Shown here one piece after another: positions 7,946-16,650 of a stretch of DNA of 64,000 nucleotides. The stretch comes from Phycisphaerae bacterium. Its GTDB lineage: Bacteria; Planctomycetota; Phycisphaerae; WQYP01. The translations under genes were made by a program, and so were the position numbers. The DNA lies in NCBI GenBank assembly GCA_035524355.1, contig DATKPA010000021.1, positions 1 through 64,000 of the forward strand. Direction: 5' to 3'. Below the pieces are notes generated by a model, which was given only the letters and a program-made list of their open reading frames with translations, was not told where the DNA came from and did no database searches. Within the stretch, counting starts at the first letter, position 1. Every line of letters starts with the position of its first letter.

Positions 7946-7968
7946 GTGGCATCGGCGTCTCGCCCATG
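7946..7968. repeat. GTGG-CATSGGC-N5-GCCCATG hairpin repeat (copy 1, variant CATCGGC)
   Basis: gtggcatcggcgtctcgcccatg directly abutting 5' end of tRNA-Lys; family of 5 copies in window. Confidence 0.6.
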
Positions 7969-7979
7969 TTCGCCACATT

Positions 7980-8053
7980 TGGCCCGGGCGGGACTCGAAC
8001 CCGCATCGAACGGGGTTTGAGCCCGCCGCGTCTACCCATTGCGCCACCGGGCC
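7980..8053 (-). tRNA. tRNA-Leu(CAA)-like, class-I shape (no long variable arm)
   Basis: acceptor GGCCCGG/CCGGGCC, Leu-type D-arm GTGGCGCAATGGGTAGACGCG, anticodon loop CTCAAAC, 5-nt variable loop TCGAT, T-arm GCGGGTTCGAGTCCCGC, A73. Confidence 0.6.
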
Positions 8054-8084
8054 GCATGAAGAGTCGGTCCATACAACACGAAAA

Positions 8085-8159
8085 TGCTCCCGGCAGGATT
8101 CGAACCTGCAACAACTGGCACCTCAAGCCAGCGCGTCTACCAAATTGCGCCACGAGAGC
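8085..8159 (-). tRNA. tRNA-Leu(GAG)-like, class-I shape
   Basis: acceptor GCTCTCG/CGGGAGC, D-arm GTGGCGCAATTTGGTAGACGCG (near-identical to E. coli tRNA-Leu D-arm), anticodon arm CTGGC-TTGAGGT-GCCAG, variable TTGTT, A73. Confidence 0.6.
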
Positions 8160-8167
8160 AGATAAAA

Positions 8168-8190
8168 GTGGCATGGGCATCCTGCCCATG
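8168..8190. repeat. GTGG-CATGGGC-ATCCT-GCCCATG hairpin repeat (copy 2)
   Basis: abuts 5' end of tRNA at 8159; followed by C14 homopolymer (8213-8226). Confidence 0.6.
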
Positions 8191-8231
8191 ACGGCCAGCA
8201 GGCCGTTTCCCCCCCCCCCCCCCGCTCACCA

Positions 8232-8304
8232 TGATCCCGGCGCGACTCGAACACGCAACCTTCAGCTCCGGAGGCCGACGCTCTTCCAATTGAGCTACGG
8301 AATC
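8232..8304 (-). tRNA. tRNA-Arg(CCG)
   Basis: Arg-type D-arm GCTCAATTGGAAGAGC, anticodon arm TCGGC-CTCCGGA-GCTGA, A73. Confidence 0.8.
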
Positions 8305-14703: not shown

Positions 14704-14944
14704 AGCAAGAACTATACGGTCTTATCCCACAGGCTACAAATGAAATCCGCCGACGCAGCGTGGCATGCCCGCGTATCCGCCCACAACTTCCCTCAGATAC
14801 GCCTGTTATCTCCAATTCCACCAATGCCGCTTACACCAGGCACACTCCTCGCTATATCTCTCTCGCCTCGAAGCGTTGCTGGACGGCACGAGCGGGATTC
14901 CCGTTTCGCGTCCCGCCACAGGTTCGAAAACGTCGGAAGGCGCC

Positions 14945-15019
14945 GGGTAAGTAGCTCAGTGGTAGAGCATCGAGTTGTTAACTCGACTGACGCGGGTTCG
15001 ACTCCCGTCTCACCCTCCA
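14945..15019 (+). tRNA. tRNA-Asn(GTT), with encoded CCA
   Basis: GGGTAAGTAGCTCAGTGGTAGAGC...anticodon arm TCGAG-TTGTTAA-CTCGA, T-arm GCGGG-TTCGACT-CCCGT, 3' ...TCCA; one A-C mismatch in acceptor. Confidence 0.75.
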
Positions 15020-15395
15020 GATGGCTGAACACCATCCCGAGACCAGCGGCGAAAGCCGCAACCGACGCAGGCTGGGCCGACGAGGCGCTGTTGCTCGCCT
15101 GTCATCTTCCGCGGCGCCGGCCGCGCTCGTGCCCCCCCCCGGGGGATGGGCCGCGCCGTCGCCAACGAAGAATTGACACCGCATCGCAGCTTGCAGCCGG
15201 GAGGATCCCGCGAAAGCACGACCACGACACTGCCCCCCCCCGCTCGGTTCGCGCACTTGAGCGTGTAAACGCCGGTGCGCAGGACCGGGGCGGGCAAACG
15301 AGCCCTCTGCCTTCGTTGAATCCCGGCTCCGCGTGTCGATGCGGGGCGAGCCGGCGCTGAATCGCGCCCGGCCTGCGACTTTTAAAAATCCGTTT

Positions 15396-15478
15396 GAAAC
15401 CACGGAGCTCACGGAGAGCACGGAGGATTCAAACATAATAAAAGAAACTCCGTGCCCCTCCGTGCTCTCCGTGGTTTC
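15396..15478. repeat. hairpin element with CACGGAG heptamer-tandem arms
   Basis: 5' arm gaaaccacggagctcacggagagcacggag, 3' arm ctccgtgcccctccgtgctctccgtggtttc, AT-rich 22-nt loop; 30 nt upstream of SPFH gene start. Confidence 0.6.
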
Positions 15479-15510
15479 ATTTTCCCCAACCGCCTCGAAA
15501 GGAGGCACCC

Positions 15511-16626
15511 ATGACCCTCAAGATCCTCATCAAGAACCACGAACGCGGCCTGCTCTTCAAGAACGGCAACTTCCAGCGCGTCCTCGCCCCCGGCGAATAC
15601 ACCCGCTGGAACCGGCTCTTCTCCAACCACGAAGAGGTCACGGTCTTCAACACGCTGGAGACGTTCGTGAAGCATCCGCTTCTGGAGACGTTTGCGACGC
15701 GCCCGGAGTTTTTGGCGGAGGCGCTGGTGCTCTCGCTGAAGGACACGGAGCGGGCGCTGGTGTGGCGCGATGAGCGGCTGTACTGGGTGTTTGGTCCGGG
15801 GCGGCATGCGCTCTGGAAGGCGCCGTACGCGCTGCGGGTCGAGACGTTCGACATCACGGCGCTGCGTTTTGAGCATCCGCAACTGGCGACGGTGCTGCAG
15901 AATTCGTCGGCAGCGCAGTACCTCGAAGGGGTGCAGGTGCCGGCGCATGAAGTGGTGCTGATGTATCGTGACGGTGTGCTGATGGAGCAGCTTCGCGAGG
16001 GTCTGCATGTGTTCTGGAAGGGCACGGGAAAGCTGGCGTTCAAAAGCGTCGACCTGCGGGAGCAGGTCGCGGATGTCGCGGGGCAGGAGATCATGACGGC
16101 GGACAAGGTGACGCTGCGTGTGAACCTGGTCGTGACGTTCCAGGTTGCGGACCCGGTTCTCGCGGTGACGAGCACGGCGGATTATCAGCAGGCGCTGTAC
16201 CGTGAGGCGCAGCTTGTTTTGCGTGCGGCGGTCGGCGGGAAGACGCTCGATGCGCTGCTCGCCGATAAGGAATCGGTCGGTAACGAGGTGCGGTCGACGC
16301 TGACGGCGCGTGCGTCGCAACTGGGTGTGCAGGTGAAGTCGATCGGTTTGCGCGACATCGTGCTGCCGGGCGATATGAAGGAGCTGATGAACCGGGTGAT
16401 CTCCGCCACCAAGGAAGCGGAGGCGAACCTGATCAAGCGCCGCGAGGAAACTGCGGCGGCGCGCAGCCAGGCGAACACGGCGAAGCTGCTTGCGGAGAGC
16501 CCGCAGCTGGCGCGTTTGAAGGAGCTGGAAATGCTGCAGCAGATTCTTGCCGGCACCAAGACGACGTTTGTGCTTGGCGCGGGGGATTTGACGCAGCAGA
16601 TTCGTGGGCTTGTGAGCACGGAGTAA
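15511..16626 (+). CDS. SPFH/Band-7 (stomatin/prohibitin-like) domain protein
   Basis: 371 aa; good RBS aaggagg; C-terminal VTLRVNLVVTFQVADP...LRDIVLPGDM...EAEANLIKRREETAAARSQAN SPFH core plus coiled-coil; N-terminal region contains two copies of an ERGLLFKNG/VLMEQLREGLHVFWKG-type segment. Confidence 0.8.
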   Translation: MTLKILIKNHERGLLFKNGNFQRVLAPGEYTRWNRLFSNHEEVTVFNTLETFVKHPLLETFATRPEFLAEALVLSLKDTERALVWRDERLYWVFGPGRHALWKAPYALRVETFDITALRFEHPQLATVLQNSSAAQYLEGVQVPAHEVVLMYRDGVLMEQLREGLHVFWKGTGKLAFKSVDLREQVADVAGQEIMTADKVTLRVNLVVTFQVADPVLAVTSTADYQQALYREAQLVLRAAVGGKTLDALLADKESVGNEVRSTLTARASQLGVQVKSIGLRDIVLPGDMKELMNRVISATKEAEANLIKRREETAAARSQANTAKLLAESPQLARLKELEMLQQILAGTKTTFVLGAGDLTQQIRGLVSTE

Positions 16627-16627
16627 C

Positions 16628-16650
16628 GTGGCATGGGCATCCTGCCCATG
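16628..16650. repeat. GTGG-CATGGGC-ATCCT-GCCCATG hairpin repeat (copy 5)
   Basis: identical to copy 2; starts 2 nt after SPFH stop; followed by second hairpin cgatggagtggtc...gaccactccatcg. Confidence 0.6.

Follow-up and report, generated by a model that had tools for sequence, protein, structure and literature searches.

The stretch analysed here, 64,000 nt of a Phycisphaerae (Planctomycetota) metagenomic genome and hereafter called the window, carries 30 tRNA genes on the minus strand between 7868 and 12504, as ARAGORN and Rfam agree, with a gene for an HNH endonuclease (9954-10574) embedded among them. Four spacers of this tRNA array, and the DNA just past a nearby gene for a Band_7/SPFH protein, hold copies of a 23-nt hairpin of the form GTGG-CATGGGC-N5-GCCCATG. 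The hairpin is very probably a repetitive extragenic palindromic (REP) sequence of the GTAG-tagged superfamily in its GTGG-headed form, of the same family as the GTAG-19 elements of Opitutus terrae, and its copies are insertions, probably mobilised by a REP-associated tyrosine transposase (RAYT). It is an element of known type in a new host and a new context, the spacers of a long tRNA array of the L-array class.

A search of the window for the 23-mer that tolerated up to three mismatches returned exactly five copies, all of them intergenic and on the plus strand, and all singletons of the CATGGGC type. None was found in 100 dinucleotide-preserving shuffles of the window, and degenerate patterns brought out no further credible copies or variants across it. 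An earlier note, made from the sequence alone, had listed the same five copies (7946, 8168, 9307, 11672 and 16628), and there are no extras. The copies, and a palindrome that adjoins one of them, are as follows.

7946-7968, plus strand: REP copy 1 (GTGGCATCGGCGTCTCGCCCATG), in the Leu(CAA)-to-Lys(TTT) spacer; head 5 nt from the 5' end of Lys(TTT); one stem mismatch.
8168-8190, plus strand: REP copy 2 (loop ATCCT), in the Arg(CCG)-to-Leu(GAG) spacer; head 7-8 nt from the 5' end of Leu(GAG); ortholog in the homologous array L162.
8191-8206, plus strand: short palindrome ACGGCC-AGCA-GGCCGT, abutting the tail of copy 2; conserved in L162.
9307-9329, plus strand: REP copy 3 (loop GTCTC), in the Ile(GAT)-to-Lys(CTT) spacer; head 7 nt from the 5' end of Lys(CTT).
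11672-11694, plus strand: REP copy 4 (loop GTCTC), in the Asn(GTT)-to-Arg(ACG) spacer; head 6-7 nt from the 5' end of Arg(ACG).
16628-16650, plus strand: REP copy 5 (loop ATCCT), with its head 1 nt past the TAA stop of the Band_7/SPFH open reading frame (ORF; 15511-16626).

Four of the five copies match the pattern perfectly, and the copy at 7946 has a single stem mismatch (CATCGGC against GCCCATG), for which folding predicts a weaker hairpin. The first and fifth bases of the supposed five-nucleotide loop pair with each other, so that the hairpin itself stands and its loop shrinks: the predicted fold is an 8-bp stem closed by a 3-nt RGA loop, at about -13 kcal/mol. The GTGG head is an unpaired tetranucleotide in every copy. 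On the tRNA strand the element reads CATGGGC-N5-GCCCATG-CCAC. When the flanks of the five copies were aligned, similarity was confined to the 23 nt themselves. The four copies in the array do lie close to tRNA 5' ends, as the earlier note had described, at 5-8 nt by both ARAGORN and Rfam and at no site at the zero distance that it had also allowed. Copy 5 was correctly placed after the SPFH stop and upstream of tRNA-Gln(CTG), which begins 104 nt further on, at 16755; an unrelated perfect 15-bp hairpin (16651-16685) follows directly on its 3' side.

The palindrome at 8191-8206 resembles a headless, degenerate partner REP of a CACGGCC type, and from its sequence copy 2 may be what is left of a tail-to-tail dimer. 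Beside copy 2, in the same spacer, the plus strand carries a run of 15 C (8209-8223; G15 on the tRNA strand), whose counterpart in L162 is an interrupted G-rich stretch. A tRNA-like minihelix ending in CCA, read from the hairpin plus CCAC, was considered and rejected; there is no discriminator base, and CCAC is the complement of the REP head.

Family identity and distribution of the hairpin

One genome per prokaryotic species was scanned for exact stems together with the head, and the matches listed comprise at least 119 loci (828 kb) with 134 copies, to which the counts in this section refer. The great majority of the loci among these matches belong to Planctomycetota (Phycisphaerae, Tepidisphaerales, Planctomycetaceae and Pirellulales) and Verrucomicrobiota (Opitutia, Kiritimatiellia, Lentisphaeria, Akkermansiaceae and Chthoniobacterales), with smaller numbers from Acidobacteriota, Armatimonadota, Hydrogenedentota, Sumerlaeota, Zixibacteria and Ignavibacteria. 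Several metagenome-assembled genomes contribute more than one locus each, and the copies listed occupy every kind of intergenic context across many phyla.

The stem covaries. The loop-closing pair is G-C in 70 of the 134 copies, A-T in 31 and T-A in 24, and is of Watson-Crick type in 126 (94%). In partner hairpins, stem pairs 3, 4 and 6 vary in a compensatory way. Such partners are frequent: at 53 of the copies listed (about 40%) one lies inverted at no more than 60 nt, the two heads pointing outward and the spacer mostly 2-4 nt long. The usual partner is GTGG-CACGGGC-N5-GCCCGTG, and some heads read GTAG. This formation of inverted dimers is a habit like that of bacterial interspersed mosaic elements (BIMEs) and of REP doublets forming hairpins (REPINs). 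The orientation of the 134 copies showed no bias with respect to local GC skew (65 against 69), and a test of intergenic location by stop-free stretches did not discriminate in these GC-rich genomes.

GTAG-tagged REPs are defined by an unpaired GTRG head, a compensated GC-rich palindrome, extragenic dispersal and inverted dimers. The present element has the head and the palindrome, in other genomes it often forms the dimers, and its five copies in the 64 kb of the window are all extragenic; we assign it to this superfamily. A search of the hairpins against Rfam families gave no match at the gathering thresholds, nor at E values up to 10.

The assignment to a particular family draws on Di Nocera et al. 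(2013; BMC Genomics 14:522, PMC3733652), in which GTAG REPs are reported from the superphylum of Planctomycetes, Verrucomicrobia and Chlamydiae (PVC) and O. terrae is described as highly enriched in them. The same source states that GTGG replaces the GTAG head in most elements of one O. terrae family, which it numbers inconsistently, as GTAG-20 in the text and as GTAG-19 in the supplement. Its supplementary table gives peptides encoded by intragenic copies of O. terrae GTAG-19 (GTGVPPV, HGRDARAT, WHGRPAR, TGGTPVP and GMGVPPM), and these back-translate exactly to the element, with GGCACGGGCGTCCCGCCCGTG, CACGGGCGGGACGCCCGTGCCAC and GGCATGGGCGTCCCGCCCATG obtained from GTGVPPV, HGRDARAT, WHGRPAR and GMGVPPM. 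The back-translated peptides cover both orientations and both the C and the T subtype, GMGVPPM corresponding to the CATGGGC variant. As the O. terrae peptides back-translate to the element, the family is catalogued already; the match was made through these REP-encoded peptides and not through the published consensus figure. Of the roles that the earlier note had proposed, that of a second REP- or BIME-like family is the one borne out, by the GTRG head, the GC-rich palindrome, the inverted dimers and the O. terrae match.

REPs are normally regarded as specific to a species or genus. A single 23-nt REP that is nearly unchanged across several phyla is thus unusual, and its constancy suggests either a RAYT that spreads horizontally or a very old recognition code. 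In contigs of Phycisphaerales and Tepidisphaerales (L144, at 1125-1262, and L036, L047, L065 and L068) short hairpins whose centre contains GTAC, one to three in number, often stand in front of the REP, for example CGCGGTACCGCG and GGCCGTACTCGGCC. These suggest a larger, BIME-like mosaic unit that includes a second type of repeat.

The hairpin has no general tie to tRNA genes. None of the 134 copies listed has a tRNA within 200 nt, and the loci contain two tRNAs in total; the 13 loci on viral contigs that hold a copy contain none. The earlier note had linked the element to tRNA 5' ends, and for the family at large no such association was found, whereas a local regularity inside tRNA arrays is real and is weighed below.

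The host array and its homologues

L-arrays are long, horizontally spread tRNA arrays that often include a conserved HNH endonuclease gene and have a functional link to rtcB (Santamaria-Gomez et al. 2021, PMC8421152). The array of the window belongs to this class. We gathered seven homologous arrays through homologues of the HNH protein (70-85% identical); the order of their tRNA genes is the same, and they occupy different genomic neighbourhoods. The organism names attached to the HNH homologues likewise point to Phycisphaerae as the probable host. Their REP contents are as follows.

L139, L141, L160, L163 and L166: no REP copies, even with mismatches tolerated.
L162: one REP copy, orthologous to the copy at 8168 and with the same flanks.
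L161: two REP copies, in the Trp-to-Pro(TGG) and Gly(TCC)-to-Arg(TCT) spacers, both of which are free of REPs in the window.

The homologous arrays are thus polymorphic for the presence and absence of the hairpin. In the one orthologous pair the loop reads GGGAC in L162 and AGGAT in the window, a compensatory change of the closing pair (G-C against A-T). Every one of these arrays has further palindromic repeats, specific to its genome, densely packed in its spacers. Since the copies are mostly missing from homologous arrays, they represent lineage-specific insertions in permissive spacers and not a conserved part of the array. The in-array hairpins are insertions, neither a conserved tRNA signal nor a mark of the array border.

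This result bears on two further roles that had been proposed. A tRNA leader processing or transcription signal is contradicted by the presence of the hairpin at only 4 of the 30 array tRNAs, by its absence from five of the seven homologous arrays, and by the conservation of only one of the four sites, Leu-GAG, in a single relative (L162); the lack of nearby tRNAs among the copies listed elsewhere points the same way. An integration footprint of the array fares no better, given that the copies are internal, between tRNA genes, and not at the borders. For annotation, a hairpin of this kind beside tRNA genes is to be recorded as a REP; neither a signal for tRNA processing nor a scar of integration should be read into it. 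More generally, L-arrays act as sinks for small palindromic repeats.

Other features of these arrays were observed in passing. Palindromes in the array spacers are built from the short repeated units CACAGAG, CACRAAGG and AAACACAAAAC (9510-9700, 10960-11057, 11440-11545 and 12110-12165); 12 of the 14 window copies of CACAGAG lie within the array, and all three units recur in other spacers of L139, L160, L161 and L162. One possibility, by analogy with the direct repeats that control the Anabaena L-array, is that they are binding sites of a regulator. The Met-to-Lys(CTT) spacer of L139 (10822-10932) ends in the 3' half of a tRNA-Ile(GAT), a truncated remnant which shows gene loss and gain in these arrays. 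Relatives of the embedded HNH protein in viruses are distant (about 33% identity), some of them encoded among phage tRNA genes, and no HNH-bearing viral locus was found among the 13 viral contigs with the exact 23-mer. Metagenome contigs of the same strain are 99.9-100% identical to the window.

The array stands directly beside an RNA-repair locus, with rtcR (13078-14703) followed by the SPFH gene, tRNA-Gln(CTG), an ORF and rtcB (span of array and locus, 7868-19032). In the relative L139 (1-11500) the same array has as its neighbours rtcR, a Ro60/TROVE gene, rtcB and three copies of tRNA-Gln(CTG). This linkage echoes the co-regulation of the L-array, its HNH gene and rtcB in Anabaena (PMC8421152). 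Two further tRNAs, both full-scoring, lie within the rtc locus on the plus strand, Asn(GTT) at 14945-15019 and Gln(CTG) at 16755-16826, the same strand as the RNA-repair genes. Both could be ordinary tRNAs, or else tRNA-like modules of the kind seen in the Y RNAs of rsr/rtc operons; the Rfam model YrlA scored below threshold. Across the window the GC skew of the plus strand is very strong, from -0.3 to -0.45 over 1-31 kb and from +0.15 to +0.36 over 32-52 kb, turning negative again from 54 kb, and in places, such as 20-26 kb, it departs from the coding strand.

Mobilisation, placement and rival explanations

Most likely, the REP is a non-autonomous element that acts at the DNA level. In single-stranded DNA it would fold into its 8-bp stem and 3-nt loop. 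The folded hairpin, and with it the unpaired 5' tetranucleotide, would be recognised by a RAYT/TnpA(REP), an HUH tyrosine transposase whose gene lies at another place in the genome. The four head bases would serve as the guide that selects the cleavage dinucleotide, and for a GTGG head cleavage is predicted at CC or CA. With a Marinomonas RAYT, a head altered from GTAG to GTGG moved the cut to CC, and CA continued to be cleaved (Corneloup et al. 2021, PMC8266576). Copies would thereby spread into non-coding DNA, and the spacers of this L-array are permissive landing sites, gathering other palindromic repeats as well, in which four REP copies have accumulated in this lineage. By analogy with characterised systems we infer RAYT mobilisation and action on single-stranded DNA, and any later consequence for transcripts would be put forward with the same reserve.

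Several observations weigh against this reading. No RAYT flanked by this REP was found in the window or in the fetched loci, which are genome fragments only, and three published RAYT/TIRYT sequences, searched by tBLASTn against every fetched locus, had no match. The copy count is visible for only 64 kb of the source genome. The sole Y1 transposase gene of the window (1803-2285, minus strand) is flanked by a different repeat, Acido-Lenti-1. Then there is the placement of the copies. All seven independent in-array insertions share one orientation and lie 2-8 nt from the 5' end of the downstream tRNA, which simple random insertion does not predict. Moreover, four of the five window copies fall within the array, with P of about 0.013 if copies were uniform over the roughly 7.4 kb of intergenic DNA, of which the array makes up about a quarter. 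Finally, the copy at 8168 has persisted since the lineages of the window and L162 separated, its closing pair compensated, and selection on the hairpin could account for this.

As to the enzyme, REPtrons, in which a RAYT gene is flanked by the same REP, can according to the literature be absent from genomes that bear REPs. A tBLASTn search with the Y1 transposase of the window against all fetched loci gave no match either, and none of the ORFs between inverted REP pairs 300-1500 bp apart in these loci is a transposase. At the Y1/HUH (IS200-like) gene of the window, the Rfam family Acido-Lenti-1 (RF01687) matches at 1669-1714 (minus strand) and 2307-2352 (plus strand), so that two inverted copies flank the gene. 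Acido-Lenti-1 has been published as a probable small RNA. Here, to judge by its arrangement, it looks like a terminal inverted repeat or REP of a RAYT/TIRYT-type transposase, and hence like a DNA-level element. The statement of the earlier note that the 23-mer is distinct from the repeats flanking the transposase gene is upheld, those repeats being of another family. The idea that this REP is linked to the Acido-Lenti-1 hairpin was examined and dropped; the two co-occur in one locus only (L085).

The geometry of the in-array copies is constant. Along the tRNA strand the hairpin with its CCAC is followed after 2-8 nt by the 5' end of a tRNA, and the upstream tRNA is 10-41 nt away. This holds at Arg-ACG, Lys-CTT, Leu-GAG and Lys-TTT in the window, at Pro-TGG and Arg-TCT in L161, and at Thr-CGT in an unrelated array (L143/L144). 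By arithmetic on the spacer lengths, six sites of homologous arrays all at 7 nt or less have a P of about 0.001 under uniform placement; the two L161 sites, the sole unbiased set, give about 0.03 for position and orientation jointly. The L143/L144 array came from a scan of 241 million metagenome records for a REP followed by a tRNA D-arm, with the observed orientation and distance imposed. Only four contigs matched: one belongs to the strain of the window, another has no tRNA, and the remaining two are copies of the unrelated array. Because the pattern imposed the geometry, this result shows recurrence and rarity, not bias. In L143/L144 a full tail-to-tail dimer fills the Gly(TCC)-to-Thr(CGT) spacer, with one head 4 nt from the 5' end of Thr and the other about 10 nt from the 3' end of Gly.

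One explanation of this regularity is that the REP obeys a real target rule or has been exapted, being inserted or retained with its head leading, 2-8 nt upstream of tRNA 5' ends. What directs insertion to these positions could be DNA that is single-stranded or structured where tRNA genes are heavily transcribed; alternatively, copies could be retained where a stable hairpin in the leader aids the separation or processing of adjacent tRNAs in a polycistronic transcript. The single geometry at seven of seven independent sites, the P values just given, the clustering of four of the five window copies in the array and the compensated G-C to A-T closing pair of the Leu-GAG copy shared with L162 all speak for it. 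The sample is small, however, and four of the seven sites are those from which the hypothesis arose; the geometry-imposing pattern that yielded L143/L144 drew only two independent arrays from all the records scanned. The scarcity of the hairpin among the array tRNAs and its absence from most homologous arrays argue further against such a role, no shared motif was seen in the flanks of the in-array copies, and from what is established about leader contacts a hairpin 2 nt from the cleavage site would not be expected to aid RNase P. Copy 5 is informative in this respect. Its absolute strand is that of the array copies, despite a neighbouring gene that runs in the opposite direction, and its head again abuts a gene end, in keeping with the report that GTAG REPs frequently have ends which adjoin or even supply stop codons (Di Nocera et al., PMC3733652). 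Together these favour a cause at the level of the DNA strand over a role in RNA. We consider a target rule or exaptation unlikely, if worth pursuing: it would amount to a structural rule for RAYT-mediated REP insertion at tRNA genes, or to an exapted leader hairpin that shapes the processing of tRNA transcripts. The constant orientation and distance are probably a by-product of strand-specific insertion, as in IS200/IS605 relatives, perhaps together with selection that disfavours a stable hairpin within the 3' trailer of the tRNA upstream. Should the regularity hold in a larger unbiased sample, it would offer a rare handle on the choice of REP insertion sites.

Two other explanations are much weaker. 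The hairpin could be a dedicated transcription signal of the array or the rtc operon, either an intrinsic terminator or a sigma-54 promoter driven by RtcR. Its TGGCA recalls the -24 element and the neighbouring RtcR (13078-14703) is a sigma-54 activator; along the tRNA strand CCACTTTTAT comes after the copy at 8168, which was listed by the terminator scan, and copy 5 stands immediately after a stop codon. In sigma-54 promoters, GG and GC are exactly 10 nt apart (TGGCAC-N5-TTGC), whereas TGGCATGGGCATCCTGC reads GG-N12-GC, with 12 nt in place of the invariant 10, and the promoter was rejected on this spacing. Four of the five copies, moreover, lie inside the tRNA operon on the strand opposite to the direction in which such a promoter would fire. 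Only the 8168 copy combines a hairpin with a T run, and the intrinsic terminator was rejected as well; the array has seven terminator-like sites against 6.0 +/- 2.9 in shuffles, a single one of which is a REP, and neither promoter nor terminator scans of the array gave anything above shuffles. With the spread of the family over all intergenic contexts and many phyla among the matches listed, a transcription signal is very improbable. A footprint of array insertion, that is, an attachment (att) site, deserves even less credence, close to none. L-arrays do spread horizontally (PMC8421152), and the homologous arrays lie in different neighbourhoods, but all four array copies are internal with none at the two borders, most homologous arrays have no copies, and the sequence is a widespread repeat unrelated to arrays. 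We accordingly retain the reading of the hairpin as a GTAG-type REP.

Comparison with known systems

The arrangement of a hairpin with a 5' guide tetranucleotide, read strand-specifically on single-stranded DNA by a Y1 HUH enzyme, would by analogy be shared with the subterminal hairpins of IS200/IS605 insertion sequences. Unlike these, the present copies have no transposase gene between them, and the element, at only 23 nt, is non-autonomous.

The REP/BIME system of E. coli (Nunvar 2010; Messing 2012; Corneloup 2021) is closer. There too an unpaired 5' tetranucleotide stands beside a GC-rich hairpin, and the elements are extragenic, dispersed near gene ends and arranged in inverted dimers. For REPs of the E. 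coli type with their TnpA(REP)/RAYT, the tetranucleotide guides cleavage, and GTGG variants have been tested experimentally (Corneloup 2021). The stem sequence found here is unrelated to that of E. coli and is perfect where the E. coli stem is bulged.

With the REPINs of Pseudomonas (Bertels and Rainey 2011) the family shares its inverted doublets, which account for about 40% of the copies elsewhere and could fold into one long hairpin. It differs from them in the window, which holds singletons and one possible degenerate doublet, and in that the two halves of a doublet systematically differ in subtype, with CACGGGC on one side and CATGGGC on the other.

The nearest relative is O. terrae GTAG-19 (PMC3733652). 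The host here is a probable Phycisphaerae genome, the window copies are CATGGGC singletons on one strand, and four of them lie in tRNA-array spacers, a setting absent from the published description. The two nevertheless have in common the GT(G/A)G head, the CA(C/T)GGGC-N5-GCCC(G/A)TG palindrome and the tail-to-tail dimers a few bases apart.

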